Origin: Bacteriovoracaceae bacterium
Lineage (GTDB): Bacteria > Bdellovibrionota > UBA2394
DNA length: 45,117 nt
NCBI GenBank assembly: GCA_028287765.1
Contig: JAQBPA010000073.1
Coordinates: forward strand, 1-45,117
Reading direction: 5' to 3'
Shown here: one piece after another, positions 8,086-41,918 of the stretch
Position numbering within the stretch: the first letter of the stretch is position 1
How the letters are laid out: every line of letters starts with the position of its first letter
Notes under the pieces: generated by a model
Databases searched by the model: none
What the model was told of the DNA's origin: nothing
The model's input: the letters and a program-made list of their open reading frames with translations, nothing else
Program-made: the position numbers and the translations under genes

Positions 8086-8115
8086 AGATTTCTCCTTTAC
8101 AGAACTCTCTTCGAA

Positions 8116-9285
8116 CTACTCTCTCGATTCCCCTCGTGTAGACGTCCTTTGAATTGGACCGGCCGCTCCTCCCCCGGCAGCAATCATCGCGCGGAGTTCT
8201 TCGGGATCACTACTTGTTTGAAGCGCTTCATCCATAGCAATCACGCGCTTTAAATAAAGACTCGCCAAAGACTGATTCAAAGTCTGCATTCCGTGTTTTC
8301 CTTGGCCGATTTGCATTTGAGAATAAATTTGATGACACTTATCTTCGCGAATCAAATTTCGAACAGCCGAATTGGGAACTAAAATTTCAACCGCGAGAGC
8401 TCGACCCACTCCAGAAGCTTTTGGAATAAGTGCCTGCGAAACAACGCCCTCGAGAGTAAAAGATAATTGAGCTCGAATCTGCGCTTGTTGATGTGGAGGA
8501 AATACATCTACTAACCGGTTAATCGTTTGAACGGCAGAACTTGTATGAAGTGTTGCGAAACAAAGGTGACCTGTTTCGGCGATTGAGAGCGCGGCTTCAA
8601 TCGATTCCAAATCTCTGAGCTCGCCCACCATAACGATATCGGGATCTTGGCGAAGAACATATTTGAGAGCTTTTTTATAACTATCAGTATCCGAAAAAAC
8701 TTCTCTCTGATTAACAATACAACTTTTATGCGGATGTAAAAATTCGATCGGATCTTCGATAGTGAGAATATGCTGCTTGGTCTCGCGATTAATTTTATCA
8801 ATGATCGCTGCGAGCGTCGTTGATTTTCCAGAACCCGTTGGACCGGTCACAAGAATCAGTCCGCGCGGCTTGATGGCCATTTCAGAAATAACGGCCGGAA
8901 GACCCAATTCTTGAAAAGTAGAAATTCTAAAAGGAATTTGTCTAAACGCGCCTGAAACAACTCCACGCTGAACGAAAATATTCGCACGAAATCGAGCCAG
9001 TCCTTTCACTCCGAAAGAAAGATCGAGTTCGTTTTCTTCTTCGAATCGCGATTTTTGACCGTCCGTCAAAACACTATAGCAAAGTCGTTTGCAATCGGTC
9101 GGGCTTAAAGCTTCCATCTTAAGAGGTTGCATGACCCCGTCGATCCGAATCACTGGCGATGTTCCGGCCGTGATATGTAAATCACTGGCACCTTTATCAA
9201 GCATTGTTTTTAGTAACTGATGAAGACTGAGGCTCGGACTTTCGGCTGCAGCGTCTGTAGGATCTTGATTTCCATTTTCTTCCAT
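8116..9285 (-). CDS. pilT: twitching-motility retraction ATPase
   Basis: Walker A GPTGSGKSTT, DPDIVMVGELRD, and His box GHLCFATLHTSSA, with PilT-like overall length plus short terminal extensions. Confidence 0.92.
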   Translation of the reverse strand: MEENGNQDPTDAAAESPSLSLHQLLKTMLDKGASDLHITAGTSPVIRIDGVMQPLKMEALSPTDCKRLCYSVLTDGQKSRFEEENELDLSFGVKGLARFRANIFVQRGVVSGAFRQIPFRISTFQELGLPAVISEMAIKPRGLILVTGPTGSGKSTTLAAIIDKINRETKQHILTIEDPIEFLHPHKSCIVNQREVFSDTDSYKKALKYVLRQDPDIVMVGELRDLESIEAALSIAETGHLCFATLHTSSAVQTINRLVDVFPPHQQAQIRAQLSFTLEGVVSQALIPKASGVGRALAVEILVPNSAVRNLIREDKCHQIYSQMQIGQGKHGMQTLNQSLASLYLKRVIAMDEALQTSSDPEELRAMIAAGGGAAGPIQRTSTRGESRE

Positions 9286-9300
9286 TTTTTTAGTCCTCCC

Positions 9301-17156: not shown

Positions 17157-20100
17157 ATGAACTCACTTGACTACTCTTTACCCATAAAAATCTTTTTTAT
17201 TTCAAGTCTGTGTTTTATTTTTTCAGCGTGTAGCTCCTCTCAAACTTCAGTGCCAAGCGAAACGCTAAATCCAAAAGGTTTAATATCTAACCAGGTCACC
17301 TATGTGGATACCATTTGGCTTGATGATTCCATTCCCTCAGGATCTTTGAGCGGCTCTTCGGGTGGAGACTCTTGGAACTGGATTTCTTCAAATCCCACTC
17401 CCATTTCGGGAAGTTTAGCTCACACTTCAAATATCAGCGCGGGTCAGCATCAGCATTACTTCACCTGGCCGACGACTCCATTTTCCATTAACACAGGCGA
17501 TAAAATTTTTACGTATATCTACTTAGATCCAAATAATATTCCATCCGAAGTCATGCTCGAATGGCATGATGGCACTTCGTGGGAACACCGTGCTTACTGG
17601 GGTGCGAATTCAATTGCGAATGGTACGGACGGAACAGCTTCGCGTTATTCAATGGGCGCTCTTCCCGCGGTCGGTCAGTGGGTTCGATTGGAAGTTCCTG
17701 CAAATCTTGTTGGACTTGAAGGAAAATCTCTCATCGGTATGACTTTCACTCTCTTCGGAGGTCGTGCGACTTGGGATAAGACAGGTAAATCTTCTGCTTC
17801 CGCTGCTCAAATTACGCCAGCTCCGCCAACTATTCTCAACGAACTCGTTTGGGTTGATGATTCAATTCCCACAGGATCTCAAGGTGGTGCTGCTGGCGGG
17901 GATTCTTGGAATTGGATTTCTACAAATCCCACTCCCATTTCTGGAAGCTTGGCTCACGTATCAAATATTAGTACAGGTCAGCATCAGCACTACTTCACTT
18001 GGCCGACCACTCCATTTTCGATTAACACCGGCGATAAAATTTTCACTTTCATTTACTTAGATCCAAATAATATTCCATCCGAAGTCATGCTCGAGTGGCA
18101 TGACGGCACTTCGTGGGAACACCGTGCTTACTGGGGTGCGAATTCAATTGCGAATGGTACGGACGGAACAGCTTCGCGTTATTCAATGGGCGCTCTTCCC
18201 GCAGTCGGTCAGTGGGTTCGATTGGAAATTCCTGCAAATCTTGTCGGCCTTGAAGGAAAATCCCTCATCGGCATGACCTTTACTCTCTTCGGTGGTCGTG
18301 CCACTTGGGATAAAACGGGGAAATCTTTTTTTACCAATATCCCAAGCCCCACTCCGCCTGTGCAATCTCAAATGAAGCTCGCCCTTTCTGGACCAAGCAC
18401 GGGAATCGCGGGAACTTGCATTGGTCCCTTCACCGTGACGACAAAAGATTCCAATAATAATTTAGCGAATGTGAGTGCCAATATTTCAATCGCTCTCACC
18501 ATGCCGACAAGTGGAAATACCTATTTAGACACCGCATGCACGACAGCATCTTCTCTCTCGGTTCCATCCGGAACAGCTACGAAATCTTTTTACTTCAAAG
18601 ATACTGGATATAATAAAAACTCGGTTCCCATTTCTGTCTCACTCCTTGCGCAAGCGAGTGGCTATACTTCATCAACGTTTTCTTTTTATGAGGTCGCAGG
18701 AATTCCCACTCAAATTATCTTTTTAACGCAACCCTCTTCAGCTGCTCTAGTTGGCGCTGTTCTCGCGGTGCAACCTTCGGTTCTAATTGAAGACGCACTC
18801 GGCAATAAGGTGAACTCGTCCGCTTTAGTCTCGTTAATCCCTTATTCAAACGCGAGCTGTACTATTCGAGCATCTGGCTCACTCACTGGCTCCAATTCGA
18901 TAACCGGAATTGGTGTTATCCTTCCTAGTAGCCTTCGCATCTCTGACCCCAGCTCGACAGCGGTGAACGGAGTCGCGAGCTTTTCAGGTATATCGTATTC
19001 GAACGCCTCGACCATTTATCTTGGAGCTTCAAGTTCAGGTTTAGTCAGTGCGTGTTCAAACGCCATCACCGTCTCGACCGTTACGCCACCGCCACCACCA
19101 CCTCCTCCTCCAGGTCAGGGCTATTCGATATGGAAAAATACCGTTCAGCCTTTACTCGCGAGTAAATGCAACGATTGCCATATCGGCGAAAGATTTGGTT
19201 ATGCAAGTTTAAGTCGAGCGGGCTCAACCTTTAGCGAAACGGAAAGCCAAAACAATTACGATAAATTTAAGACAATGATTTCTCTCGATTATCCTCAGAA
19301 AAGTCGACTGATTGAAAAAGCTTTACCCGGGGCACATCCGAACTCGATTCAACACGCGGGTGGAAATGGTTTAATTCAAGAAAATGATTCTACTTATACG
19401 ACTTTCTTAAATTGGATCAATCAAGAGAGAACTGAACGATGTCCTCAGTGTGGGATGGCCGCAACAAATCAATTTTTAGCTTATGTGAAGCAACCCAATT
19501 ATTTTTGGAGTATTGCGCGTGATCCCATGCGTAACGACGGAGCACGACAAGGTGCTCGCATTATGCTTCAAAAAATTGATCCAGCAAGTTTTAGTCCCGT
19601 CGGTAGCCCGATTGATTTTCTTGCTGGAATAAATTTCTGCGAGGGAAGTGTTTGCAGCGATTCTTATTGTAACGATACAGGTGACTGTGATTTTGGAAAT
19701 ATGTCGGTTAGCTATTCCGGAACTCAAATGGCTTTTGAATGTAAAAGGCCGATTAACGGAGAAAGCTGGGCGCAACGAGATTGGAATATCTGCATCGCTG
19801 GCATCGACGCTAACGGAAAAGCTGTACAGCCGCATTATTTGAGGCCCGCAAAAGATCGTCACTGGGGATTGGCGCTCGAAAGACATACCCCCTTCGCACG
19901 ATACGCTGCAAACGGATCTGCCCTCACAGGAGTTGACGATCGGCAGTTTGTGTACCGAAGAAGAAACGATATCACGCCCATTTTTTCACCTGGCGACGAT
20001 CGAATTTATTTTGCAAGCGAAAGCCCAGATCCTCGTACGGGAGAAGATTCAGTAGAAACTTATCACGGAGATTTTCACCTCTTTAATATTATTTCAACCG

Positions 20101-22235
20101 CCCTCGATGGATCGGATGCGAAAACGATTTATCGAAGCGAAGGCGGACGAATTGATTCACCTTTCTTTTTGAAGAACGGAAATTTAACTATTCATAGCTG
20201 GAATTTAGATCGAATGGATCGGCATATGTACACGCAAATGTCAGCGGATGGGCAAATGGAAATGCCGATTCTTTTCGGTCGAACTCAAGGTCCAAATCGA
20301 TGGGGAAACGCTTTTCAAATGACGAATGGAATGATTTTTGGAATCACCGGGATTCGCCGAGGATCCATTGACCTCCTCGTGCCCTTTGCAGCAGATCACA
20401 CACTCGGCGGTGTTGATCCAAACTTTGCCGCTCTAAAAATATTGCCGCAGAGTTTGATGGATGAGCTTCAACCCTATTTAAACGGAGTGCACAATGACGA
20501 TTACCCGTATTGTTATACTCAAGACTACGGTCCTAACAGTCGGAACTGTCGGGTTTCACAATTTTTTTCGAATCCTGCATGGTCACCCGACGGTCGCGCG
20601 TTTGTTTCTCACAATCCGGACGTCACTTATCTTGGAAATGGCGGCGAAGGCGAAGATTTTTATCGAGATTTAAAAAACTTTACACCTGATCCCAATCATC
20701 CCGTCTTTGGAAGTTATCTCCCACAAAAAATGGGAATATCGATTATGGACCAAAAGGACGCTTCACATCTTCAGATTTTTTTACATAATGATGCTGGATA
20801 TATGTATCGCTATCCGCAATGGGTCGGAAAAAGAGAAGCTCCAAAAATTCAACCCTGGAAAACAGACGAATCACAAACGGGATCTATTCTTCATATAGCC
20901 GATTTTAAACTTTGGTTAAGTTTTCAAATTTTCCCGCCGGATGCCGCAAACAACGTCTTCGATAAAACAAATCAAATGGCTTATATCAACACGATCACTT
21001 CGGTCCGAGTACTTTCAAAAGAAATGGGTGATCAAGCCTGTATCAGAGATGATGGAGAACGAACGATGCTGAATGACGGTGAACAAGGAAACCATCCCAC
21101 ATCTCTTGGAATGGTCGACTCAACCGGATTTACTCAGTACGTTGTGCCAACTTCGTTGGGCGGGAACGCGCACGGAGATATTGATCTTCAAGCAGATGAT
21201 TCAATTAAATTAAAGATTCCTAAAGGAAAAATTCTTTACTTCCAAGGCATCGACGCCAACGGTCATGCTGCTTTTCAGCACACCCGGCTTTTTGGAATAC
21301 CTCCAGGACAAGTCGTAAACACCTCCGTAAAAAGAAGTCAGTATGATACGCAGTGTGTGGCATGTCACGGCACTCTCAGTCGCGATAATCCTTATATAGA
21401 TCTTGCGGCATTCGGCCATCTCTCGACACAGGCTCTCGATTTTAATACGGCAGCCAATGCGGCTGCCCCCGTTGATCTCACGTCGCCGGCAATCGTTCGA
21501 AGGGAGATGACTTACCTAGGTGTGCTTCGACCGCTGCTAGATAAGCCTAGGGTAATCAATGGAATCGACTACCGATGCACCTCTTGTCATACCGAAAATA
21601 ATGGCAGCCAAATTCCCGCAGCAGAACTGACATTCGATTCGCAATATTCTTTTGTTGGAAATTTTCCAAAGGCAAGTTGGGCATTTGCTGCGTCGGCACC
21701 TTCGAGCTATATCAATTCAGTTCCTCAAAACCTACGAAGACCGAGTTACGATTTTTCGGTGAGTTATAGTTGGCTTTTTAATCTCAATCGAGAAAACGGA
21801 CAGTACCCAGCGCTCTTTCCTGATCAGTTCGCCAATCAAACGGCTCTTTCAAACTTGGCGCCTTATGATCCTGGATATCAAAACTTATGGAGACGCGGGA
21901 AAGATGTTTTCGGCGGGGATACGGCCTACTATCTGAACCAAATTATGGCTTACGTGAACGTCGGCCGCTCATCGGATCTCATGGGCGGAATTTCGTCGCT
22001 CAGTTATCTGATTAGTGTTCTGATTAATCAGCAACTTGATAAGACAAAGCCCCTTCCTAAAGTTGATCATTCTCAATGGCTAACGGAAGATGAAAAAAGA
22101 ATTTTCATGGGAGTCGTCGATCTCGGAATGCCTTATATGGCGACCTGTAATGAAAAAATTGTTCAGTCCGGTCCTTATACGGGCCTCAGTTGGGGAGAAG
22201 CACATCCCCAAGAACACCAAATGATGCCGTACTAA
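17157..22235 (+). CDS. giant (1692 aa) multidomain lipoprotein with three CxxCH motifs
   Basis: Lipobox ...CFIFSAC|SSS. Tandem ~160-aa duplicated N-terminal domain. Ig-like Ser/Thr-rich repeats. PPPPPPPPP linker. Heme-attachment-type motifs CNDCH, CVACH and CTSCH. TolB/PD40-like segments (FSPGDDRIYFAS, AWSPDGRAFVS). Confidence 0.85.
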   Translation: MNSLDYSLPIKIFFISSLCFIFSACSSSQTSVPSETLNPKGLISNQVTYVDTIWLDDSIPSGSLSGSSGGDSWNWISSNPTPISGSLAHTSNISAGQHQHYFTWPTTPFSINTGDKIFTYIYLDPNNIPSEVMLEWHDGTSWEHRAYWGANSIANGTDGTASRYSMGALPAVGQWVRLEVPANLVGLEGKSLIGMTFTLFGGRATWDKTGKSSASAAQITPAPPTILNELVWVDDSIPTGSQGGAAGGDSWNWISTNPTPISGSLAHVSNISTGQHQHYFTWPTTPFSINTGDKIFTFIYLDPNNIPSEVMLEWHDGTSWEHRAYWGANSIANGTDGTASRYSMGALPAVGQWVRLEIPANLVGLEGKSLIGMTFTLFGGRATWDKTGKSFFTNIPSPTPPVQSQMKLALSGPSTGIAGTCIGPFTVTTKDSNNNLANVSANISIALTMPTSGNTYLDTACTTASSLSVPSGTATKSFYFKDTGYNKNSVPISVSLLAQASGYTSSTFSFYEVAGIPTQIIFLTQPSSAALVGAVLAVQPSVLIEDALGNKVNSSALVSLIPYSNASCTIRASGSLTGSNSITGIGVILPSSLRISDPSSTAVNGVASFSGISYSNASTIYLGASSSGLVSACSNAITVSTVTPPPPPPPPPGQGYSIWKNTVQPLLASKCNDCHIGERFGYASLSRAGSTFSETESQNNYDKFKTMISLDYPQKSRLIEKALPGAHPNSIQHAGGNGLIQENDSTYTTFLNWINQERTERCPQCGMAATNQFLAYVKQPNYFWSIARDPMRNDGARQGARIMLQKIDPASFSPVGSPIDFLAGINFCEGSVCSDSYCNDTGDCDFGNMSVSYSGTQMAFECKRPINGESWAQRDWNICIAGIDANGKAVQPHYLRPAKDRHWGLALERHTPFARYAANGSALTGVDDRQFVYRRRNDITPIFSPGDDRIYFASESPDPRTGEDSVETYHGDFHLFNIISTALDGSDAKTIYRSEGGRIDSPFFLKNGNLTIHSWNLDRMDRHMYTQMSADGQMEMPILFGRTQGPNRWGNAFQMTNGMIFGITGIRRGSIDLLVPFAADHTLGGVDPNFAALKILPQSLMDELQPYLNGVHNDDYPYCYTQDYGPNSRNCRVSQFFSNPAWSPDGRAFVSHNPDVTYLGNGGEGEDFYRDLKNFTPDPNHPVFGSYLPQKMGISIMDQKDASHLQIFLHNDAGYMYRYPQWVGKREAPKIQPWKTDESQTGSILHIADFKLWLSFQIFPPDAANNVFDKTNQMAYINTITSVRVLSKEMGDQACIRDDGERTMLNDGEQGNHPTSLGMVDSTGFTQYVVPTSLGGNAHGDIDLQADDSIKLKIPKGKILYFQGIDANGHAAFQHTRLFGIPPGQVVNTSVKRSQYDTQCVACHGTLSRDNPYIDLAAFGHLSTQALDFNTAANAAAPVDLTSPAIVRREMTYLGVLRPLLDKPRVINGIDYRCTSCHTENNGSQIPAAELTFDSQYSFVGNFPKASWAFAASAPSSYINSVPQNLRRPSYDFSVSYSWLFNLNRENGQYPALFPDQFANQTALSNLAPYDPGYQNLWRRGKDVFGGDTAYYLNQIMAYVNVGRSSDLMGGISSLSYLISVLINQQLDKTKPLPKVDHSQWLTEDEKRIFMGVVDLGMPYMATCNEKIVQSGPYTGLSWGEAHPQEHQMMPY
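17316..17792 (+). repeat. intragenic tandem duplication, copy 1 (period 534 nt)
   Basis: Direct alignment by eye with 17850-18326. The core 17521-17692 differs from 18055-18226 at only 3 positions; the flanks are more diverged. Confidence 0.9.
17850..18326 (+). repeat. intragenic tandem duplication, copy 2
   Basis: Same as copy 1. It encodes W(L/V)DDSIP...GDSWNWIS.NPTPISGSLAH...GRATWDKTGKS a second time. Confidence 0.9.
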
Positions 22236-23764: not shown

Positions 23765-24715
23765 TTAGGCCCGCCGCCCAGGCGATATCACTCCCCATGC
23801 CTCAAGGGAGACATTCTTCCCTCTCCAACTCACAGAGTTCCCCATCAAGATGTGAATCCACATTGGAAAAGCCGACAACTCCCTAAGAATCCAGGAAAAT
23901 AAAAAAGTGAAATTCGTTTTCGGATCCATTTTCTTAGCCAAAATAAAATCACACAGTCCCCAGCTAAAAAAATGAAAGCAAAGGAATTTAAATACTAAGC
24001 CAGGAGCATAGAAAGACAAAAAAGGAGCTGCAAAAATAATCGAGCCAAGTGAACTTGCAAAAGGCTCTGTCAAAAAAACAAAAGGTGCATGAGCTTTTCT
24101 CATCCGGCCCCAGCGTAAATGTCTTGCCCAAAAGCTTTTAAAATTTATTTTAGAAAGATGCTGAATGACGGGTTTACGTGAAAGGACAATCTTCATTCCA
24201 AGATGTTTCATCGCAACGCCCGTCATATAATCTTCGGCAAGATAGATTCCTAAAGTTTTTAATCCGCCAAAACGATCCGCCATTTTTTTTTGGAACACCA
24301 TCGATTTTCCGATCACAAAGGGATAACCAAAGTTATCTGCCAGCAGCATCCAACGGGCGTAAAAAGTGTTGAGATACGTGGCTTCAAGTTTTGCCGAAAG
24401 ACTGTCAGCATTTCGGCCGCTGATCGCACTCGTCATCACGCCTACGTTCGCATCCAACTGCGATGCTAGCGAAGTGAGATAGTCGGCCTCGACTCTGACA
24501 TTACTATCACTAATCAGAATCCAATTGTGCTTCGCCTCTGCGTAACTCGCTACTAAGTTTTCAACCTTTGGATTCCAATCGTCACGCCGTTTGGAAACGA
24601 TCACTTTCGCTTCTACGCTTGGAAAAAGAGAGATGAGCTCTGTAACGATCGAATGCGCGGGATCTTGTTCGTCGGCAAGAGAAAAAATAATTTCGAAATT
24701 TGGATACTGGAGCAA
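23765..24715 (-). CDS. GT21-family glycosyltransferase (ceramide glucosyltransferase / HpnI-like); true start probably upstream, near 24907
   Basis: Similarity along the whole length to eukaryotic ceramide glucosyltransferase as I recall it: YPNFEI, WNPKVENL, ISDSNV, YLAEDY, RHLRWGRMR and a C-terminal VSWRG. The in-frame upstream 64 codons encode a TM helix plus PLSILKPLKGCDSDLRENLKSFF, which is the family N-terminus. Confidence 0.85.
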   Translation of the reverse strand: MLQYPNFEIIFSLADEQDPAHSIVTELISLFPSVEAKVIVSKRRDDWNPKVENLVASYAEAKHNWILISDSNVRVEADYLTSLASQLDANVGVMTSAISGRNADSLSAKLEATYLNTFYARWMLLADNFGYPFVIGKSMVFQKKMADRFGGLKTLGIYLAEDYMTGVAMKHLGMKIVLSRKPVIQHLSKINFKSFWARHLRWGRMRKAHAPFVFLTEPFASSLGSIIFAAPFLSFYAPGLVFKFLCFHFFSWGLCDFILAKKMDPKTNFTFLFSWILRELSAFPMWIHILMGNSVSWRGKNVSLEAWGVISPGRRA

Positions 24716-24876: not shown

Positions 24877-25662
24877 TTAAACCGCAAAGGCCAGCGATGG
24901 TGTCCAGTTAATCAGCTCCTCTGTTTTTGGATACGCAAGAAATTGCTCCTCAGTTATAGGATGCGCAAGAGTTTGCTCCTCTTTAAAGTAGGTGAAGTCC
25001 AGTTTTTGCAGTCGAATACTTTCGAGGACGGATTCGACAGTGCGCTCGCAATCAAACGTCGTCTTCCAAGAATGGAAATGTCTCATGCCATGAAAATCAC
25101 TAGAAGCTATCTTCGGCAGATCGCTTTTTACAACATCGTCGAGAAGAGTCTGATGAAGGGTAATTTCCCAGGCATCGAATTCTGATCTCAGCTCCTCTCG
25201 TCGATCCCACAGGAGATAAGGATTTGCGGCCATTCGATTGGGCGAAAGTGGATGCGCAGCGATCGCTAGACCTCCTTGTGCGCGAATGGATCTCGCAATA
25301 TCAACAATATCCCTATCGGCAGAAATATATTCTGAAAGACCCAGTCCAAGAATATGCGACGATCGGTGATTCACGATCGAATTTTGCGTGAACTCGACTC
25401 CAGGAATCACGAGCATTCGATACATCTTCCAAGCACGTTCCGCTTCACTCTTTAAAATTTCTTGATAGAGAGGGAATGTCGCGCGCGTCAGTGTCTTTCC
25501 GAGATAAGCGGCCGCCTTTCCCAGAAAGGCTTTTTCTTCACAGAGATGATCCGTAATCGCTATGGCGCCAAAACCATGTTGGCCGTAGAGATCTATAATT
25601 TCTGGAATAGTAAGTTTGCCGTCGCTGAAGGTGGAGTGAATATGAAAATCTCCAATAATCAC
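24877..25662 (-). CDS. PHP-domain metal-dependent phosphoesterase
   Basis: N-terminal GDFHIHSTFSDGKLTIPEIIDLY...AITDH, with later His/Asp motifs (AAHP, SSDFHG). Confidence 0.85.
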   Translation of the reverse strand: MIIGDFHIHSTFSDGKLTIPEIIDLYGQHGFGAIAITDHLCEEKAFLGKAAAYLGKTLTRATFPLYQEILKSEAERAWKMYRMLVIPGVEFTQNSIVNHRSSHILGLGLSEYISADRDIVDIARSIRAQGGLAIAAHPLSPNRMAANPYLLWDRREELRSEFDAWEITLHQTLLDDVVKSDLPKIASSDFHGMRHFHSWKTTFDCERTVESVLESIRLQKLDFTYFKEEQTLAHPITEEQFLAYPKTEELINWTPSLAFAV

Positions 25663-25781: not shown

Positions 25782-26519
25782 TTAAGAATCGCGGCGGAGT
25801 TCTGAAAAATAATTGTTTTCAAAAGAAGTTCGAATCCACTGCGAAAATTCTTCTGCGTTCGGCTGTTTTTTTAGACGATCAAGAGCTTCTCCTAACGAAG
25901 CTCCGGTTTGAAGGTGGTTTAAAAATTCAAACTCGTTTTCAGAAAGAATTCGAATATCTACAGAAAAATCCTTTCGAAAAATAATGGAATATTCGGGAAC
26001 CAATTCCAATTCTTTAATATCTCGGTTTAGCCAGGCAGCCGCACAATTGAACCCGGAAGAAAATAAAATCGTAGCGGCCTGAAACTTAAAGCGAACGTCC
26101 TCCGAAATTTTGGAAAAATCATCGAGAGTGAGTGTGAATCCCCTCTTCGCATGGAAAGATTTCATGGCCAGCACTTCAAGTTCTGCCATCTCTGCCCATC
26201 TTTCTTCAAATCCTTCATCTCGAATATAATTGGGAAGCTTGAGGCCGACGTCGGCAATATTATGAGAAGTCGAACGATACGCTAAGGTATAAGCTATTCT
26301 TAGTTCTTGCCAAAGTTTATCCCCCATCAGTTTTGGCAAAACTACAAACATCTCCTCCATCGCTTCGCGACTGCGTACACTGTAGCCAGTTCCGTAAATC
26401 GAAAACCGCTCGTCTATATTTCCTTGAGGCGGTTGCTTAAAAAGAGACTCGGGAATTACAGGATATTCCCGAATTCCTTGATCAAACGCTTTGATGGACG
26501 GAAAGTTCCGCTTGTTCAT
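25782..26519 (-). CDS. DUF2063-family partner protein of the MNIO enzyme (BufC-like)
   Basis: The N-terminal region ERFSIYGTGYSVRSREAMEEMFVVLPKLMGDKLWQELRIAY matches the DUF2063 pattern (R..vYrn......aL...fP.l..llG...f..l). Its start overlaps the DUF692 gene end by 38 nt. Confidence 0.75.
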   Translation of the reverse strand: MNKRNFPSIKAFDQGIREYPVIPESLFKQPPQGNIDERFSIYGTGYSVRSREAMEEMFVVLPKLMGDKLWQELRIAYTLAYRSTSHNIADVGLKLPNYIRDEGFEERWAEMAELEVLAMKSFHAKRGFTLTLDDFSKISEDVRFKFQAATILFSSGFNCAAAWLNRDIKELELVPEYSIIFRKDFSVDIRILSENEFEFLNHLQTGASLGEALDRLKKQPNAEEFSQWIRTSFENNYFSELRRDS

Positions 26520-27351
26520 TTCTTCCTCGTGAAGGTTTAATCACCTTCTCTATTATTTGTTCAGCTCGTCTTGCTTCCGCTTCGATGACGTTAAGCTCCG
26601 GGATATGATCATCTCGTTCAATAATAAACGGACGCGGCCCGATTTGATTGACCGTAAATTCAAAAAGCTCCCATACAGGATCGATGATTTCGTGATCATG
26701 AGTGTCGAAAAGAAAAGTCTCAAGATTCGAATGACCCGCTAAATGATATTGCACGACGCGGTAAGCCGGAATTTCTCGAACGAAGTTCTTTGCATCAAAT
26801 CCATGATTAAACGAGTTTACATAAATATTATTCACATCGAGCAGAAGATAACAATCCGCCTCTTCGATAATGCGCTTTGTAAATTCCCATTCCGGCATCT
26901 CGTCTTCTTTAAAAAGCAGATACGTCGAAATATTTTCTAAAGCGATTCTTTGGCCGAGGATGTCTTGAACTTGTTTTATTTTTTGAACGACGTGCTCAAT
27001 TGTGTGTTCGGTCATCGGCAGAGGAAGTAGATCATGCCAATTTTTCCCCTCAGTTCCGCCCCAACAAAGATGATCTGAAACCACATAAGGCTCTATTCGT
27101 TTGATGAGCGCTTTTAATTTTTTGAGATAAGGAAGATTGATCGGATCCGGGCTTCCAATATTAAGAGATACACCATGCGTTCCAATCGGAAAGTTTTCTC
27201 TCACTTTTTCTAAAATATGAAGAGGACGCCCCTCGGTATCCATGAAATTCTCAGAAATCACTTCAAACCAACCCACTTTGGATTCACCAGCAAGCACGGC
27301 AGAATAATGTGGATGTCGAAGTCCGATTCCGGAATAGGATTTCACATTCAA
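26482..27351 (-). CDS. DUF692/UPF0276 multinuclear non-heme iron oxidase (MNIO; BufB/MbnB-like RiPP maturase)
   Basis: Family signature along the whole length: GIGLRHPHY, WFEVISENF, HGVSLNIGS, VSDHLCW, HDLLPLP, ALENISTY, LLLDVNNIYVNSFNHGFD, QYHLAGHS. TTG start with no obvious Shine-Dalgarno. Confidence 0.9.
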   Translation of the reverse strand: MNVKSYSGIGLRHPHYSAVLAGESKVGWFEVISENFMDTEGRPLHILEKVRENFPIGTHGVSLNIGSPDPINLPYLKKLKALIKRIEPYVVSDHLCWGGTEGKNWHDLLPLPMTEHTIEHVVQKIKQVQDILGQRIALENISTYLLFKEDEMPEWEFTKRIIEEADCYLLLDVNNIYVNSFNHGFDAKNFVREIPAYRVVQYHLAGHSNLETFLFDTHDHEIIDPVWELFEFTVNQIGPRPFIIERDDHIPELNVIEAEARRAEQIIEKVIKPSRGRNEQAELSVHQSV

Positions 27352-27383
27352 TTATTTACTGGGGTCGTGACTTTTGGTCACTG

Positions 27384-27421
27384 AAAATAAAAAAGGGGGG
27401 ATCGAATGGATCCCCCCTTTT
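27384..27421 (-). terminator. intrinsic terminator between the precursor gene and the MNIO gene
   Basis: 9-bp GC-rich stem GGGGGGATC / GATCCCCCC (27395-27403 / 27409-27417) with a 5-nt loop. On the minus strand it is followed by TTTTTTATTTT. Starts 20 nt after the precursor stop. Confidence 0.7.
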
Positions 27422-27440
27422 AAACAGAAAAGTAAAAAAA

Positions 27441-27728
27441 TTATTTCGCTTTATGGGCAGTGGCAGCTTTGGCAGCAGTCGCTTTAGCAGCGTCGCAATC
27501 TTTCTGATTTGGGGTATTGATCCAACCTTGCTTAGCGCAGCTATTTTGACCTTTGCAAGAATTTCCGGCTTTACCTGAACAAGCGCCTTGGCCTTTGCAA
27601 GCGTTTCCGCCTTCACATTTAATTCCAGCAGCTTTGTCGGCAGCTTTAGCAGGGGCTTCAGCACGAGCGGTCATAGAAGTTAATGCTAAAACAGCAGTTG
27701 AAATAAGTATTTTTCTTGATGGTGTCAT
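27441..27728 (-). CDS. exported six-Cys RiPP precursor peptide (bufferin BufA2-like)
   Basis: 95 aa. Shine-Dalgarno GAGGAG 6 nt upstream of the ATG. Sec signal MTPSRKILISTAVLALTSMTARA|EAP. Core IKCEGGNACKGQGACSGKAGNSCKGQNSCAKQGWINTPNQKDC has 6 Cys in a reiterated spacing. Directly upstream of the MNIO + DUF2063 genes. Confidence 0.75.
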   Translation of the reverse strand: MTPSRKILISTAVLALTSMTARAEAPAKAADKAAGIKCEGGNACKGQGACSGKAGNSCKGQNSCAKQGWINTPNQKDCDAAKATAAKAATAHKAK

Positions 27729-27816
27729 TTAATTCTCCTCACTTACGTTAAGCTCTGCACCTCTGTATCCCTCATACCTACGCAATCACGCGGCAAATGG
27801 GTGAAGGATCTAAAGT

Positions 27817-27832
27817 TGCAAAGAGATTTCCA
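27817..27832 (-). promoter_or_regulatory. possible sigma-54 type -24/-12 element TGGAAA-TCTCT-TTGCA
   Basis: On the minus strand, GG and GC have exactly the consensus spacing of TGGCAC-N5-TTGC. It sits about 90 nt upstream of the precursor ATG. The -24 hexamer deviates at two positions. Confidence 0.2.
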
Positions 27833-27860
27833 ACTCAAAACCGATTGAGTCTGAAAAAAT

Positions 27861-28526
27861 TTATTTCTTTTCCTTTTTGATTACTTTTTTTGCAGTCCCC
27901 GCCGGAACCTCGGCTAATTTTGGACTGTCTTTTAAATTTCCTTCAACATCTAAGGCAATATCCACGTCATCGCCGACTAAAACTCCGCCGGTTTCAAGCG
28001 TCGTATTCCATGTAAGTCCGTAGTCCTTTCGGTTGATTCGTAATTTTCCGGTAGCACCTGCTTTGAGATGTCCACCAGGACCTGCAGCTTCGCCCAAATA
28101 CTCGACCTCGAAATCCACAGGCTTAGTGACGCCGTGGATGGTGAGTTGGCCCGAAACTTTTGCTGTTGAGCCCGGCTTAATTTTGACTTTATCCGAAACA
28201 AATTTTAGCTCTGAAAATTTCTTCGCATTAAAAAAATCTTCTGAACGAAGGTGCTCATCTCGATGCTTGTTGCTGGTATCGATGCTGGCGGCTTTCACCA
28301 TCGCATCAATCTTCACAAGATTTCCTTTATCATCCGTTTCAAAACCGCCGGCGAAATCTTTAAAATGTCCCTGAACATGAGTGAGGATATGGCGAATGCT
28401 AAATCCAACGTTGGTGTGATCCTTGTCGAGCTCAAAAGTTTTCGCACGAAGCTCGCCTCCTACGAATAGGATTGAGAGAAGACCTAAAATTTTTGTCATT
28501 TGATTCATAAGCTGGATTCCTTTCAA
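27861..28526 (-). CDS. YceI-family periplasmic polyisoprenoid-binding protein
   Basis: ELDKDHTNVGFSIRHILTHVQGHFKDFAGGFE and GQLTIHGVTKPV are typical YceI segments. Signal peptide present. The likely start is the ATG at 28508 (MNQMTKILGLL...) rather than the TTG at 28526. Confidence 0.85.
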   Translation of the reverse strand: MKGIQLMNQMTKILGLLSILFVGGELRAKTFELDKDHTNVGFSIRHILTHVQGHFKDFAGGFETDDKGNLVKIDAMVKAASIDTSNKHRDEHLRSEDFFNAKKFSELKFVSDKVKIKPGSTAKVSGQLTIHGVTKPVDFEVEYLGEAAGPGGHLKAGATGKLRINRKDYGLTWNTTLETGGVLVGDDVDIALDVEGNLKDSPKLAEVPAGTAKKVIKKEKK

Positions 28527-28559: not shown

Positions 28560-28818
28560 GCAACAAGATTTAGACGCTCATTTTCAATCGAGAAGAGATA
28601 ATTCGAAACCCTTGACTTCGAGTGAGAGTAGTGACCAGAAATATTTTATACTTTGACTCAATGCGCCATCAAACTCTGATCGACTTTCGAGCTGCGGAGC
28701 AGCAACATTTGAGCTGGGGGGCTCACACATTAAAAAATATTTTTTATTTCAATTCACTCTTTTATTAATTCTTCCAGTCGTCACGACACTCTCGACAGCA
28801 TCCGGCGGCAGCATCTCG

Positions 28819-29828: not shown

Positions 29829-30164
29829 TTAGGAAAGATGTTTTGAAACGAGCTTGGTCATTTCAAACATCGAAACGCGTTCTTTTCCACCGAATACAGC
29901 TTTTAATTTGTCATCGGCTTTGATGTAACGTCTTTCGGCTTGGTCTTGCAGACCGTTCTTCTTAATATAAGCCCAAAGTTTTTTGGTCACTTCAGTACGA
30001 GGAAGCGGATTGTTTCCGACCACGAATCCTAGAGTAGCAGAAGGAGTCATTGGTTTCATGAAAGCAGCGTTTGGCTTTCGTGTTTTCATCGTTCGTTTAG
30101 CAGCTGGTTTTGCTGCCGCTTTTTTTACAGGTTTTGCGGTTTTTTTTGTTTTCTTTGCAGCCAT
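29829..30164 (-). CDS. SWIB/MDM2-domain protein with Lys/Ala-rich histone-H1-like N-terminal tail
   Basis: The tail is MAAKKTKKTAKPVKKAAAKPAAKRTMKTRKP. It is followed by LPRTEVTKKLWAYIKKNGLQD...IKADDKLKAVFGG...SMFEMTKLVSKHL, which is the SWIB fold pattern. Confidence 0.85.
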   Translation of the reverse strand: MAAKKTKKTAKPVKKAAAKPAAKRTMKTRKPNAAFMKPMTPSATLGFVVGNNPLPRTEVTKKLWAYIKKNGLQDQAERRYIKADDKLKAVFGGKERVSMFEMTKLVSKHLS

Positions 30165-37005: not shown

Positions 37006-38199
37006 TTAAAGCGGACACGCATCCACGATTAGTCCGATCGAAGCCTCTCTCAGGAGTAAATCGTCGATCGCGCTCCTAAAATGAACGACTGCATTTTCCG
37101 CAGACGTCTGATCGGTGATCGTAATCTGCTCAACAGAGTCCTTCGTTAATTCGACTGTCTGTTTTCCGGTAAAGCCAAGAAATGCATTTTGGCCGACAGT
37201 GAGCTCGAACGACTTTTCAGATAAAAGCCGAATGGGAGCAATAAAAAAATTGTCTTCCTTAAATTGTCCACCGAACACAGGAAGTAATCGGCTACTGATA
37301 TGAAGCCGAATATTGCGACCATCGTATGAAAAAAGCTCAAATTTTGAAATCTCATTACTCAAAAGCCGCGCTTTCACGCCCGTAAGATTGCTAAAGTCGT
37401 TAATGGCAGAAAGAATACTATTCGTCGTTTCTTTTCGCGAACGGCCAATAATCGAGACTCCGTTAATCACGAAATCTTGTTCTGCCCAGGTCTGAAACTG
37501 AGTGGGAATATTTAGTGGAGTCTTTAGAAACTGTGCTGCAGTGTATGTCGTTTTAGCAGTGACTCCGCTTTGTTCGGAAACTGAATTAATCATTTTTTTC
37601 CAAGCGATCGCCGAATAATCATTGTGAATCGTTGAAACTTGATCGTCAGAAGATCGAGGAGACGGAATCGCAACGCCATTAATTGTAAAATTATCTCGAA
37701 TTGAAAGCGCCGACTCATCAAAAATAATTGGAAAGGTCTTCTCAGCAATTTTGCCCAAATTTTTCATACGAAGCGGTTTGATCTCAAAATCTTTTGGAAA
37801 CTCGTCTCCGGCCAATTTTGAGCGCACGATGGTTGTAAATTTAAAACCATCATTGAAATAATAATGAGTATCCCCATAAGAATCTTTATAGGAAACGTTT
37901 TCAACAATGCGATTTGCTTCTGCCAAGAGTTGCTTTGATTCAGAATTCAAATAAGTTCTGTCATTTGCTCCTAAAATCCCATTACTTGAGATTTGAGCGA
38001 GCTCTCTCTCGCGAACAAAAAGTGAAGTCAGAGCCATAATTTCTTGAAGTGCTCGAAAGCCGATCACTCGTACATCCTCACAACTCAAGCGTGGAATTGT
38101 TTGTGCGCTTATTCGACTTTCTGAAATCATCAGAATTAAAAATGCAAAAAATAAAGTCAGTTTAGTAAAATGCATAATCATTCTTCCCTTTATTTTCAT
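37006..38199 (-). CDS. Sec-exported truncated flagellin-like protein, paralog 2 (two Flagellin_IN-type motifs)
   Basis: Signal peptide MKIKGRMIMHFTKLTLFFAFLILMISESRISA. Flagellin ND1-like helix (LAQISSNGILGANDRTYLNSESKQLLAEANRIVENVSY). Two IN motifs (FTINGVAIPSP...SGVTAKT; FVINGVSIIG...AINDFSNLTGVKARL). CD1-like end (AENAVVHFRSAIDDLLLREASIG). The ATG at 38199 forms an ATGA overlap with the upstream stop. The ORF track start is a GTG at 38211. Confidence 0.7.
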   Translation of the reverse strand: MKIKGRMIMHFTKLTLFFAFLILMISESRISAQTIPRLSCEDVRVIGFRALQEIMALTSLFVRERELAQISSNGILGANDRTYLNSESKQLLAEANRIVENVSYKDSYGDTHYYFNDGFKFTTIVRSKLAGDEFPKDFEIKPLRMKNLGKIAEKTFPIIFDESALSIRDNFTINGVAIPSPRSSDDQVSTIHNDYSAIAWKKMINSVSEQSGVTAKTTYTAAQFLKTPLNIPTQFQTWAEQDFVINGVSIIGRSRKETTNSILSAINDFSNLTGVKARLLSNEISKFELFSYDGRNIRLHISSRLLPVFGGQFKEDNFFIAPIRLLSEKSFELTVGQNAFLGFTGKQTVELTKDSVEQITITDQTSAENAVVHFRSAIDDLLLREASIGLIVDACPL

Positions 38200-39386
38200 C
38201 GTTGAACGCACGATCTTGGCATCGAAGCAATTGAGCTACGATATTCATTAATTTGACCGACCGCAGAATCCAAAATCGAAAGAGCATTCGATGCATTCAC
38301 TTGGGTTAGAATATCGCTATGCGGAAAATCACTCTCGGTAACAGCGATTGTATGCTTTCCGCTGAAACCCAAAATGGGGTAACCCGCCGCAATCTCGATG
38401 GATGATGATGATCGGAGTTTAATTTTTCCGACGAACAAGTTTTCGCCAGATTTTATCCTTCCGCCGGTAATCGCAGCAAATGCATCAGAAGCATTCACTT
38501 CAATATTGCGACCGTCCAAAGCTATTAATTTCAGTCCGATAAGCGTTAGATGATCTGAATCCAAAATAGCAGACGCCCGTACACCCGTTTGATTTGCATA
38601 ATTGTTAATCGCGGTGATCAATGCTGAAACAGAGTAAATACGTGTGCCGGCCAATGGGATCCCATTAATTTTAAGATGCGAATAAATATCTGATGGAGCA
38701 TTCGTCATGTCCATTTTGTCAAGATCGACAAAATTCGTTTGCAGATCTGCAAAGACCCCTGTTCGTCCAGATTGATCATCAATGATCCTAGCTATGGCAA
38801 TGGCAGAGTGACTATTGCCAACACTAGACAATGTATCATCAGAATCAGCGGGAACAGCCAGTGCCACTCCGTTCATCACTAAATAATCTTGAGGAAGATC
38901 TTGACGACAATTTGGATCCAACGAAAAAATCTCAGAAGCGAGACCTCCAAAAGATTTGATTTCAAAGGGTTCAACCTTAAAATAAACTGGCAAACTCGTT
39001 TGATCGATCGACGAATAGAGGAGTGTTCGAAACTGAATTCCATCTTTAAAAACTGCATAGTCTTCCCCGTAAGAATCCGTAAAAGCGAAATGATCGACAA
39101 ATTGAAGAAATTCGCTCGTGCGGCTCGCATATTCAGCGTTTAAATAAAGTCGATCATTTCGTCCCAATGTCCAATTACTTGCCTCTATAGCAAGAGAACG
39201 CTGCCTTTGTACAATCTCATTCAGCCGACTCATCGTTGACTCAATCTTATTTGCCAGACCGATTGTCTCTTCGCAGGTAAATCTCAGTTGAATTTTAGGT
39301 TGGACGCTGAAACGCTGTTTCGTATCGCTGGCAGATATCGACGATCCTAAAAGAATCAATGAAATGAATACTAGATAGTTCCTCAT
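38196..39386 (-). CDS. Sec-exported truncated flagellin-like protein, paralog 1 (two Flagellin_IN-type motifs)
   Basis: Signal peptide MRNYLVFISLILLGSSISA. ND1-like helix (MSRLNEIVQRQRSLAIEASNWTLGRNDRLYLNAEYASRTSEF). IN motifs (LVMNGVALAVP...SGRTGVFADL; LKINGIPLAG...AINNYANQTGVRASA). CD1-like end (ALSILDSAVGQINEYRSS). No D0 segments. Confidence 0.7.
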   Translation of the reverse strand: MRNYLVFISLILLGSSISASDTKQRFSVQPKIQLRFTCEETIGLANKIESTMSRLNEIVQRQRSLAIEASNWTLGRNDRLYLNAEYASRTSEFLQFVDHFAFTDSYGEDYAVFKDGIQFRTLLYSSIDQTSLPVYFKVEPFEIKSFGGLASEIFSLDPNCRQDLPQDYLVMNGVALAVPADSDDTLSSVGNSHSAIAIARIIDDQSGRTGVFADLQTNFVDLDKMDMTNAPSDIYSHLKINGIPLAGTRIYSVSALITAINNYANQTGVRASAILDSDHLTLIGLKLIALDGRNIEVNASDAFAAITGGRIKSGENLFVGKIKLRSSSSIEIAAGYPILGFSGKHTIAVTESDFPHSDILTQVNASNALSILDSAVGQINEYRSSIASMPRSCVQR

Positions 39387-41134
39387 TTTTTTTCTCCGTT
39401 ATGATTTAATTTTTGATTCTCTTCAAATTGCTTTTGGTATTGATCCATTATCTGGAGGGAGTCACGTTGGAGGTTCGCAAGCCCCTTCGGAAGTATTCCG
39501 GTCGACGGATCAATCATTGTCGACAGTACCCCAGCAAAATAGGATGAAAAGCCATTCACTTCATTTTTTCCAGCAAAGAACGTCGTGAGGTCTTCAAAAT
39601 AGTTCACAAGCTCATCCATCAACCTACTTTCGTTAGAAAGAATTTGCGTATCATTATCTTGATCCGAATAACTGGAGTAAACCGTTTCGATGCCCAGATC
39701 CACCAGAGAGTGAATCGATAAATTTTCGGGAAGCTTAGGGACGGCATCGGTCACCGTCGTTGTTAATTTTGAGAACATATAAAGAAGACTTAGATCTCCC
39801 GTGGTCGGACCTGAGATGATCGCCTTTCTGAGAGCCGTAATCAGCTGATTGTATTTCTCGATGAACTTTTTTATTTTGATTACCGCGTTTGAAGTATTTT
39901 CCGTAATGGTCAGAGTCTTTTTCACCCCGGGCTGAGCGGAAATCAAATTCAACGTCACGCCAGGAACGACGTCAGCCACTTCATTGGACTCTCTATATAT
40001 ATCTTCAGCCAGCCCCCCCACTTTGATCTTAGCATTTAGACCCTCGGTTACCGGCATGGATCCGAAAGCTTCAGTTGGAAGAAGTGTTAAGCTACTTGTA
40101 ATGGAGAGGTTAAAATTTGCGCCGGGTGTCGGATCACGATTTGCCTTTCCTGGAAGTAGATCGGTAATATCAATCCGTGCCGCGTTTGCAGAACCGTCAC
40201 CCGTATTGTAAACAGACGCACTAACACCCATATTTTCACTATTAATTTGAGCGGCCAAGGACACCAAGGTTGTACCTGCGACTACCATTATCGCACGCTC
40301 CCGCCCACGGAGTTTGAGGGTTAAAGTCCCGCGCTGAGTTGTGACTGCATTGTTAACTCCCGTGAATGCACCCACCCAACTTTCATTTGTAGCAAGACCT
40401 TCAACAGAAAGTGTAACGGAACTGATACGAGCAGAAACACTTGCGACTCCCGTTACCACGGCGGGATCAGAGCTTTGAACAACTTCAGTTTTAAAATCAG
40501 CAGTCTTTCCAAGATCGTTAACAGCGTTGTTGAGCCCTTCCGTTAAACTCGCTAATTGCTGATAAATTTCTTCCTGTAGCATAATGTCGATAGAAATTTG
40601 ATCAAGTGACTCGGGACCCTTTGGTATTGCTTTTCGAATGGATCCTGAAGCTCGAGTAGAAAAATCCTTCTCGATAGCACGGATCTCATTGATTTTTGGA
40701 CTAAAGAGGACGATCTGATAAAGATCTTCTGAATTATAATATTCACCCTCGCCATCCAATTTTAAGAGAACGCAAATCTCATGCGTTACGAGACGGATCT
40801 TTTGGTCAATCGTGTCGTTGTTCCATTTTTTGAAATCGAGAGAGGTCACCTTGGTCGTGGAGTTACTTCGAGCCCCTCGATCCAGATCGCCGGCCGGAAT
40901 ACATCGCACTTGGCGTCTGAGCTCCCAAATATCTTTTACGGATATTTTTTTATTTGTTTGATCTACTCGAGCTTGGCCCATTTCTTGAATCGCTAAAGTA
41001 ATTTTTGAAAAATAAGAATAATACTGAGAGCAATTGGGCTCGCCGCCATTTCCAATTTCGTGTCCTCCAACGGCTAATGCCGTATCGGCTGACAAAACAA
41101 ACATAAGAAATGCAAAGAGCTTAAAATTTTTCAT
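39383..41134 (-). CDS. Sec-exported FliD (flagellar cap)-like protein with a novel Cys-containing N-terminal domain
   Basis: Signal peptide MKNFKLFAFLMFVLSADTALA. The C-terminal ~400 aa align with FliD: SSDPAVVTGVAS...VTLSVEGLA, TLVSLAAQINSENMGVSASVYNTGDG, NAKIKVGGL...SNEVADVVPGVTLNL...TLTITENTSNAVIKIKKFIEKYNQLI, LVDLGIET. The ATG at 41134 has an AAGGA Shine-Dalgarno. The ORF track start is a TTG at 41152. Confidence 0.75.
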   Translation of the reverse strand: MKNFKLFAFLMFVLSADTALAVGGHEIGNGGEPNCSQYYSYFSKITLAIQEMGQARVDQTNKKISVKDIWELRRQVRCIPAGDLDRGARSNSTTKVTSLDFKKWNNDTIDQKIRLVTHEICVLLKLDGEGEYYNSEDLYQIVLFSPKINEIRAIEKDFSTRASGSIRKAIPKGPESLDQISIDIMLQEEIYQQLASLTEGLNNAVNDLGKTADFKTEVVQSSDPAVVTGVASVSARISSVTLSVEGLATNESWVGAFTGVNNAVTTQRGTLTLKLRGRERAIMVVAGTTLVSLAAQINSENMGVSASVYNTGDGSANAARIDITDLLPGKANRDPTPGANFNLSITSSLTLLPTEAFGSMPVTEGLNAKIKVGGLAEDIYRESNEVADVVPGVTLNLISAQPGVKKTLTITENTSNAVIKIKKFIEKYNQLITALRKAIISGPTTGDLSLLYMFSKLTTTVTDAVPKLPENLSIHSLVDLGIETVYSSYSDQDNDTQILSNESRLMDELVNYFEDLTTFFAGKNEVNGFSSYFAGVLSTMIDPSTGILPKGLANLQRDSLQIMDQYQKQFEENQKLNHNGEKK

Positions 41135-41918
41135 ATTTTTCCTTGGTTTCAAGTTGGGTCATCGGGAGAAGTTGAATACTAAGCGAATAAACTTCGGTTG
41201 GTTTTTCTGATTTTAAAAACTTGGCAAGCCGACGCCTAAAATGGCGGATCATCTTTTTAGCTTCGGGGATTTTTTTGAGATCAGCTGCCACCACCATACA
41301 ACTAAAATCTCGCCACTCGACGGAGATATCTTCAAGGGCACTCGCTGCTCGCTCTAAAGTTTTTTGATGCGACAACCGAATCGCTGGCGACGAAATATCG
41401 GTGGTTGTCGCGAGCTGCTTATCTAACGGAAAAAGTTTTCCATTTTTCACGTAAATGAGTTCGAGGCGCTCTAATCTCTCCAGAGCTCCGCGAACTTCAC
41501 TTACAGAAATTTTTAGGCGCTTTGCGATCCAAAGAGGATCAGATTTCGAATTTTCGGTTTCGCTTAACGAGAGAATCGCAAAGTGAATGGGATCCGAAAT
41601 CGAATTAAACTGATCGAGACTGAGCGTTAAATAATTCTCATCAATGGAATCAATTTCACTCTCTGAATGAAATTGCGCAGACTTCAGCAGACGATTTCGT
41701 TTAACAGGATCCAACTGAAGACGTTCTGCAATTTGAATGGCCACCTTCGGCGTTACCCGACGCTTCTGAGAAAAATATTCCGATAAACGTCCGGGAGGTA
41801 TTTTAAGTGAGAGAGCCATCGCTCGCAGTGAATAGCGAGGATTACGCGCTTTTCTTTCCAAAAACGCAGACGTTAAAATAGCGGCTCCCTCCGAACCACT
41901 CGATTGGTTTTGTCTCAA
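41121..41918 (-). CDS. TIGR02147/DUF4423-like HTH transcriptional regulator
   Basis: The N-terminus FLERKARNPRYSLRAMALSLKIPPGRLSEYFSQKRRVTPKVAIQIAERLQL matches the HTH pattern of this family, which is expanded in Bdellovibrio and Fibrobacter. Overlaps the FliD-like gene start. Confidence 0.6.
   Translation of the reverse strand: MRQNQSSGSEGAAILTSAFLERKARNPRYSLRAMALSLKIPPGRLSEYFSQKRRVTPKVAIQIAERLQLDPVKRNRLLKSAQFHSESEIDSIDENYLTLSLDQFNSISDPIHFAILSLSETENSKSDPLWIAKRLKISVSEVRGALERLERLELIYVKNGKLFPLDKQLATTTDISSPAIRLSHQKTLERAASALEDISVEWRDFSCMVVAADLKKIPEAKKMIRHFRRRLAKFLKSEKPTEVYSLSIQLLPMTQLETKEKYEKF

Follow-up and report, generated by a model that had tools for sequence, protein, structure and literature searches.

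A probable Buf2-type bufferin biosynthetic operon headed by a yceI gene in a Bacteriovoracaceae bacterium

Bufferins were described in 2024, and the described system closest to the locus reported here is Buf2 of Caulobacter vibrioides, whose buf2ABC operon "lacks a bufD1-like gene" (PMC11626156). In the Buf2 peptide of that bacterium, a mass shift of -4.03 Da is found per central Cys, CysI and CysVI are unmodified and probably joined in a disulfide, and the product absorbs at 305 nm; the buf1 and buf2 operons are both induced by copper, Buf2 protects against copper, and DoxX is dispensable for the modification and function of Buf1 (PMC11626156). A survey published in 2025 found thousands of Buf2 (Buf_6/12Cys) members with a strictly conserved bufABC order (PMC12452194). 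More recently, in a 2026 paper, the products of pairs of a multinuclear non-heme iron oxidase (MNIO) and a PME-type 1 partner (MNIO-PME1) were united as 5-thiooxazole "captophorins", with more than 20,000 clusters in RefSeq, 17 of them in Bdellovibrionota, and with BufA2 placed in a "Cys-Lys" group of precursors (PMC13097082). Here, we describe a locus on a 45,117-nt stretch of DNA from a Bacteriovoracaceae bacterium of the phylum Bdellovibrionota; this whole stretch is called the window, and all coordinates refer to it. The locus encodes a small exported peptide with six Cys, an MNIO and a DUF2063-type partner, and we conclude that it is very probably a functional Buf2-type bufferin biosynthetic operon of the captophorin class, within the Cys-Lys precursor group. 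The chemistry and the copper-related role that we ascribe to it are predicted by homology.

A sequence-only reading of the window had placed four elements in order on the minus strand, namely the gene for the exported peptide, a strong intrinsic terminator, an MNIO gene and a gene for a DUF2063-type partner, and all four were found at the positions that it gave. The order of precursor, MNIO and partner genes on one strand is the same in every related locus examined; because this order recurs and the six Cys of the precursor are invariant across 33 aligned sequences, the locus is more than a chance arrangement of reading frames. Together with the yceI gene directly upstream, its features are as follows.

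27861..28526, minus strand: yceI, YceI family (Pfam YceI, E 3.3e-44, the match spanning the full length)
27441..27728, minus strand: precursor gene (bufA, BufA2-like), 95 aa (open reading frame list; NCBIfam Cu_RiPP_BufA2)
27660..27728, minus strand: precursor signal peptide, residues 1-23, MTPSRKILISTAVLALTSMTARA (predicted by inspection)
27441..27659, minus strand: precursor core, 72 residues with six Cys, plus the stop codon (NCBIfam BufA2 match)
27381..27421, minus strand: intrinsic-terminator-like hairpin (stem 27391..27421) with T-tract, between the precursor and MNIO genes (folding)
26482..27351, minus strand: bufB, MNIO (DUF692), 289 aa (Pfam PF05114; NCBIfam MNIO_BufB)
25782..26519, minus strand: bufC, DUF2063 partner, 245 aa (Pfam DUF2063, PF09836)

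The precursor ATG is preceded by GGAG 8-11 nt on its 5' side. The open reading frame (ORF) of bufB begins with TTG, and gene callers prefer a GTG two codons further, which gives 287 aa; for yceI, gene callers choose the ATG at 28508, which gives 215 aa. The ORF coordinates confirm that the start of bufC overlaps the MNIO stop by 38 nt (26482..26519), the two genes lying in different frames.

The 95-aa precursor agrees exactly with the sequence quoted in the sequence-only reading and has exactly six Cys, at residues 38, 44, 50, 58, 64 and 78. Two positive charges at its N-terminus (MTPSRK) are followed by hydrophobic residues, with a Kyte-Doolittle mean of 2.54 for the best 9-mer, and A-R-A precedes E24. 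By inspection, this region has the features of a Sec signal peptide that signal peptidase I would remove, with cleavage predicted at A23|E24, as had been proposed; a signal-peptide-like N-terminal region has its counterpart in all 32 aligned homologues. The predicted 72-residue core ends in an Ala/Lys-rich tail and has a mass of about 7.03 kDa before modification. BufA2 (NF050166, "BufA2 family periplasmic bufferin-type metallophore") is the only NCBIfam match of the precursor, with an E-value of 6.5e-14, and a Pfam search of the precursor gave no match at E <= 0.1, DUF2282 (PF10048) included.

Database searching returned 32 precursor homologues that are 37-68% identical over local alignments. 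In the alignment that combines them with the window sequence (A1, 33 sequences), the invariant columns are the six Cys together with K45, G46 and N62. The ten homologues from this search that were tested pass the BufA2 cutoff, at 68-155 bits; for close homologues the range is 64-83 bits. Precursors from the loci that share the upstream yceI gene (the YceI clade) reach 64-72 bits on the same model in the seven of the nine closest relatives with DNA for which scoring was carried out, save one extra short ORF at 44.6 bits. This short ORF is the extra precursor of locus L029, which ends "GGCCAKDEHKGKK"; tandem precursor genes before a single MNIO gene are found there (3309..3932) and also in L027 (4362..4891) and L005 (about 5215..5775). 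A second precursor copy in the window was considered and rejected, 27441..27728 being the sole six-Cys ORF found there. In the AlphaFold2 model of the precursor, C38 lies in a strand (36-39) and C78 in a helix (75-94); this placement of CysI in the first strand and of CysVI in the helix agrees with the bufferin description, in which a strand-to-helix disulfide geometry is given for BufA1 and the BufA2 model is very similar (PMC11626156). The window peptide is a slightly divergent member of BufA2.

The 289-aa protein matches Pfam MbnB_TglH_ChrH (PF05114) with an E-value of 1e-104, and it scores 348.8 bits on the NCBIfam model "MNIO family bufferin maturase" (MNIO_BufB, NF050167), above the cutoff of 310. 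On the HvfB, MbnB, ApyH and ChrH models it stays below each cutoff (271.4 against 360 for HvfB and 65.7 against 325 for MbnB). The identification of this protein as a DUF692/MNIO enzyme, without which the earlier proposal would have fallen, is thus confirmed by both the Pfam and the NCBIfam profile searches. When the enzyme is aligned to MbnB, with a ligand numbering that we take to be that of the MbnB structures, the equivalents of all nine metal ligands are conserved (H59, H94, E139, D172, N175, H202, D216, H218 and E245). In its ERDD motif, D247 is the equivalent of the proposed catalytic base and D248 occupies the Cys-Lys specificity site; the residue after the catalytic base is Asp in enzymes acting on Cys-Lys-type substrates and Phe in those acting on EGKCG substrates (PMC13097082). 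The Histophilus enzyme 3BWW has ERDF at this position.

The partner protein scores 43.2 bits on Pfam DUF2063 (PF09836; gathering score 27.2) and gives a weak full-length match to the HvfC model (E 2.3e-5). Its AlphaFold2 model (pLDDT, the predicted confidence score, 77) finds 3DEE, the structure of NGO1945, as the top fold match in the Protein Data Bank (PDB), with an E-value of 5.6e-6, a TM-score of 0.68 on the target and 198 aligned columns; the next matches are to TglI in 8HCI and 8HI7. NGO1945 is the archetype of the PME-type 1 partners, which combine DUF2063 with a domain resembling the RiPP recognition element (RRE; RiPP, peptide made on ribosomes and modified post-translationally), and most of which are 250-260 aa long (PMC12452194); with 245 aa, the window protein is near this majority. 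The Pfam score and the NGO1945-like fold together bear out the DUF2063-type partner of the sequence-only reading. Elsewhere, MNIO and DUF2063 are encoded in a single frame of 557-655 aa, as in L002 (5968..7641), where the fusion is confirmed by Pfam; similar long ORFs occur in L001, L005, L006, L009, L015 and L022.

With Buf2 of C. vibrioides (buf2ABC, CCNA_02999-03001), the window locus shares a Sec-exported six-Cys precursor, BufB, a DUF2063 protein, the A-B-C order and the lack of DoxX. The two differ in host, Bdellovibrionota against Alphaproteobacteria, and in that the window operon is headed by YceI. The proposal that the locus is bufferin-like, and of the BufA2 rather than the DUF2282 type, therefore stands: the enzyme is above the BufB cutoff, the precursor matches BufA2 alone and not DUF2282, and the third protein is a DUF2063/NGO1945-type partner. 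Bufferin 1 (BufA1, DUF2282/PF10048; buf1ABCD) has in common with the window locus the enzyme superfamily, the partner type, the export logic and the predicted strand-to-helix disulfide (PMC11626156, PMC12452194), but it has four Cys, two of them modified, usually a DoxX fourth gene and often sigma/anti-sigma genes. Within the YceI clade, some precursors do give weak PF10048 matches. For the window precursor, which gives no PF10048 match and has six Cys instead of four, membership in Buf1 was rejected.

Oxazolin (HvfA), fontiphorin and gonophorin share the pair of an MNIO and a PME-type 1 protein, the 5-thiooxazole chemistry and copper binding (PMC13097082). Their precursors carry EGKCG repeats and their MNIOs the Phe of ERDF, in contrast to the window precursor, which has no such repeat, and its ERDD enzyme; together with the HvfB score, which is below the cutoff, these differences led us to reject membership in the oxazolin/HvfA group. 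Membership in the methanobactin group (MbnABC) was likewise rejected, given the low MbnB score, a partner of the DUF2063 type rather than MbnC, and a precursor with a signal peptide. The sequence-only reading had added that the locus would be real but not novel if its precursor matched a characterised bufferin subfamily with an identical operon layout. Its novelty was overstated: the Buf2 family is known and counts many members, and its Caulobacter operon likewise has no DoxX. The YceI-headed layout is the sole mildly new element.

Between the precursor and MNIO genes, a hairpin with a 13-bp stem (27421..27391), seven G-C pairs and a 5-nt loop is followed by TTATTTT. It folds with -25.9 kcal/mol (z = -5.7), a stability that none of 200 shuffled sequences reached, so that stem, T-tract and folding statistics all speak for the strong intrinsic terminator that had been read here. 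As a special feature of the window, the terminator was rejected, since such hairpins are widespread among related operons: a G+C-rich hairpin, usually with a T-run, lies at the same place in 9/9 other YceI-clade relatives with DNA, including two from Omnitrophota, and among the more distant loci, of other phyla, most likewise have a hairpin between precursor and MNIO genes. In the window, about 30 nt separate the hairpin from the MNIO start, and therefore the enzyme genes probably depend on read-through. Most likely, the hairpin acts as an attenuator that would give more precursor than enzyme transcript. An Rfam search of the whole window at gathering thresholds found nothing.

Several observations weigh against the assignment to Buf2. 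In the comparison with Caulobacter BufA2, which was made via the NCBIfam BufA2 model, the window precursor stays, at 51.9 bits, short of the curated 60-bit cutoff. Compared with the 32 aligned homologues, its CysIII-CysIV spacing is longer by one residue; C-A-K-Q-G stands after CysV, where most homologues have C-K-G-x-G, and Lys follows just two of the four central Cys, with none after CysIII and CysV. The precursor model is of low confidence (pLDDT 62) and gave no match in a fold search against the PDB; a search of the PDB with the partner sequence also gave no match, and a word-based search returned just three partner homologues. Unlike the Caulobacter system, moreover, the 45-kb window contains no sigma-F/NrsF pair and, anywhere along its length, no match to the motif GTAACY-N15-17-CGAA that would mark a SigF-type promoter, and no copper gene is found among the Pfam matches of the window proteins.

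Some of these points would suit a peptide that is modified by the MNIO but whose product or role is unlike that in Caulobacter, with another number of modified Cys or another metal. The score below the BufA2 cutoff, the longer CysIII-CysIV loop and the missing Lys after CysIII and CysV could be taken in this sense, as could the lack of a copper regulator nearby in the window, and fusions of bufferin domains to MerC suggest other metals for some bufferins (PMC12452194). We nevertheless consider such a divergence unlikely: with all its catalytic residues in place, the enzyme is a typical BufB, the CysIII-CysIV loop varies from 6 to 8 residues even among relatives above the BufA2 cutoff, and all characterised MNIO-PME1 systems install 5-thiooxazoles and generally bind copper (PMC13097082). 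It is still less probable, to the point of being hardly credible, that the small ORF encodes an ordinary, unmodified, secreted disulfide-rich mini-protein, or that the cluster is decaying, with the MNIO and its partner idle or acting on another substrate. The strong terminator between precursor and enzyme genes might be read in that way, and many bufferin precursor genes have no genetically associated MNIO gene (PMC12452194); yet the only six-Cys ORF of the window stands in the canonical position before the MNIO gene, the three genes are intact with their conserved residues, the hairpin is kept in functional-looking operons across phyla, and an independent assembly (L025) carries an identical precursor and the same order of genes. 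A functional Buf2-type operon thus remains our strongly preferred reading.

The neighbourhood of the operon was compared with those of the nine closest MNIO relatives, which are 58-70% identical (L026-L031, L033, L034 and a contig from JGI); the nearer homologues come from metagenome-assembled genomes labelled Deltaproteobacteria and Bacteriovoracia. In 9/9 of these relatives, YceI is followed by one or two BufA2-type precursors, the MNIO and DUF2063. The YceI-family gene noted directly upstream on the same strand in the sequence-only reading is therefore real, and it recurs not only in these nine relatives but also in two Candidatus Omnitrophota loci (L002 and L005), where yceI lies about 21 nt before the precursor gene and the MNIO and DUF2063 portions are fused. 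The gap between yceI and the precursor gene is 21-132 nt across the YceI clade and 132 nt in the window. In a scan for MNIO genes covering one genome per GTDB species, which gave 24 loci that are 45-54% identical, none of them from the window's lineage, YceI was absent from 22 of the 24, and it was also absent from a relative at 55% identity.

The sequences upstream of the conserved block fall into different sets. MreB and an ABC transporter flank L026, L027 and L029; SWIB and a pseudouridine synthase flank the window locus, L030 and the JGI contig. In L028, L031 and L034 (58-60% identity), a divergent pair of extracytoplasmic function (ECF) sigma factor and NrsF genes lies upstream, and a gene for a DsbH-like thioredoxin of 700-785 aa stands directly after the partner gene. 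In these three loci, GTAACT-N16-CGAA, which we take to fit the Caulobacter sigma-F promoter consensus, lies upstream of yceI rather than of the precursor gene. According to a published survey, sigma/anti-sigma genes occur in Buf1 clusters and not in Buf2 clusters (PMC12452194), and L028, L031 and L034 contradict this absence. In the window, the sole sigma-70-like site found near yceI lies upstream of it (28672..28643), and the operon probably begins with yceI. Just past the stop codon of yceI stands a small hairpin, ACTCAA-TCGGTT-TTGAGT (27833..27850, minus strand); L033, whose MNIO is 68% identical, has the same core, CAATCGGTTTTGAGTT, at this place, and the hairpin may serve as a signal for processing or for weak termination.

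Whether YceI belongs to the bufferin system functionally is a closer question than the identity of the operon. That YceI is a mere syntenic neighbour, and that the functional unit is the three-gene buf2ABC as in Caulobacter, is in our estimate only slightly short of an even chance. An unbootstrapped neighbour-joining tree of MNIOs, which took in six of the nine closest relatives (L026-L031), groups these with the window in a single clade, and vertical inheritance could explain most of the co-occurrence; the length of the gap in the window, the small hairpin within it and the many more distant loci without YceI also favour this explanation. Against it stands the fact that the flanks are wholly different between the sub-groups (MreB, ECF sigma/NrsF, SWIB), yet yceI stays, with gaps of 21-132 nt. 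The sigma-F-like motif of three loci, moreover, lies upstream of yceI rather than bufA, and the same adjacency is found in the two Omnitrophota loci, which occupy a separate deep branch of the tree. From this conserved adjacency we infer a function of YceI in the bufferin system, probably as a clade-specific, co-expressed periplasmic accessory.

A stronger proposal is that YceI is a dedicated fourth Buf2 component, under a stress promoter that belongs to the operon itself, and that in the window lineage, the nine relatives and the two Omnitrophota loci it holds the accessory role that DoxX holds elsewhere; we offer this tentatively and with rather low confidence. Neither DoxX nor a cytochrome b gene was found in any YceI locus (for cytochrome b, in the nine Pfam-annotated loci), and YceI and DoxX never occur together in one locus of our sample. 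YceI might, for instance, be a periplasmic partner that binds lipid or quinone and handles the thiooxazole peptide's redox state, its delivery or its turnover. In the literature searched, YceI in bufferin clusters received one mention only, in the legend of a Legionella figure (supplement of PMC12452194). The cluster concerned, at CA927_RS07990 of Legionella pneumophila subsp. fraseri, likewise has YceI inside a bufferin cluster, but there it stands with a cytochrome b gene and is a single case, whereas in the window YceI stands alone before the precursor gene and is conserved in the clade.

Besides YceI, the sequence-only reading had counted the missing DoxX gene and the downstream PHP and GT21 genes as departures from the usual operon; YceI is a real departure, and the other two were overstated as such. 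No DoxX match was found among window ORFs of at least 110 aa, nor a match to a small DoxX hidden Markov model (HMM) among open frames of at least 70 aa, so that the absence itself holds for the window. As a departure it does not hold, since Caulobacter buf2ABC is also without DoxX and a detectable DoxX gene follows bufC in only 4/24 related loci, a lower bound given that detection by tblastn and a four-sequence HMM is insensitive. The two downstream genes are indeed present, as listed here.

24877..25662, minus-strand locus, downstream of bufC: PHP (Pfam PHP match)
23765..24715, minus strand: GT21, Glyco_transf_21 (Pfam match)

Their significance as departures was not borne out, for they are rarely kept in relatives: PHP follows bufC in just two of the closest relatives, L033 and the JGI contig, and GT21 follows PHP in L033 only. 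This looks like local synteny. As a separate observation, the GT21/HpnI-like gene is called as a 316-aa ORF from the TTG at 24715, and its frame is open upstream to a TAA at 24910; this upstream stretch contains no ATG, GTG or TTG and encodes a membrane-helix-like segment and the conserved N-terminus "PLSILKPLKG". The L033 orthologue is 366 aa long, and its start lies 4 nt ahead of the PHP stop. In the window, GT21 probably starts at a rare codon (CTG at 24907 or ATC at 24898) that overlaps the end of PHP (24877), or else the gene carries a frameshift.

Further features of the window lie apart from the operon. A secreted-looking protein of 1692 aa (17157..22235, plus strand) has no Pfam match; it contains two modules of about 175 aa (17322..17847 and 17856..18381) with 85% identity to each other, a run of poly-Pro and three motifs of the haem-binding CxxCH type at residues 671, 1400 and 1474, the last two in the C-terminal part. 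The regions 3091..11043 and 37006..41152 hold a type IV pilus block, with a PilS/PilR-like two-component pair, PilC, PilT-like and PilB-like ATPases and a pilin, and three adjacent genes with FliD/flagellin-IN motifs. A SWIB-domain protein is encoded at 29829..30164 and a DUF4423 protein at 41121..41918. This context of pilus, FliD/flagellin, SWIB and DUF4423 genes fits a Bdellovibrionota-like organism.

Taken together with the known bufferin systems, the locus suggests the following pathway. The precursor would be made in excess, with the hairpin letting only part of the transcripts continue into bufB and bufC. In the cytoplasm, BufB, in complex with its DUF2063/RRE-type partner BufC, would use its multi-iron site and O2 to oxidise C44, C50, C58 and C64 to 5-thiooxazoles, with 4 Da lost at each; this pattern is predicted from Buf2 of C. 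vibrioides (PMC11626156). By its Sec signal peptide, the modified product would then be exported to the periplasm and cut there after A23, and a disulfide between C38 and C78, which the Caulobacter data and the precursor model suggest, would close a small fold. The mature 72-residue product may chelate copper and thereby buffer copper stress in the periplasm, and the upstream yceI gene is probably co-transcribed, its product serving as the clade-specific periplasmic accessory.

As a bufferin locus, the operon adds little, because the class is large and curated NCBI models exist for both precursor and enzyme. Its precursor, though clearly BufA2, would stay a "hypothetical protein" by the curated cutoff, and it marks the lower edge of the BufA2 model. 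The layout yceI-bufA-bufB-bufC, sometimes under a divergent ECF sigma/NrsF pair, provides a testable hint at a function for YceI. YceI is a widespread family without a settled role, and the conserved arrangement described here points to a bufferin accessory component that published surveys have not listed.

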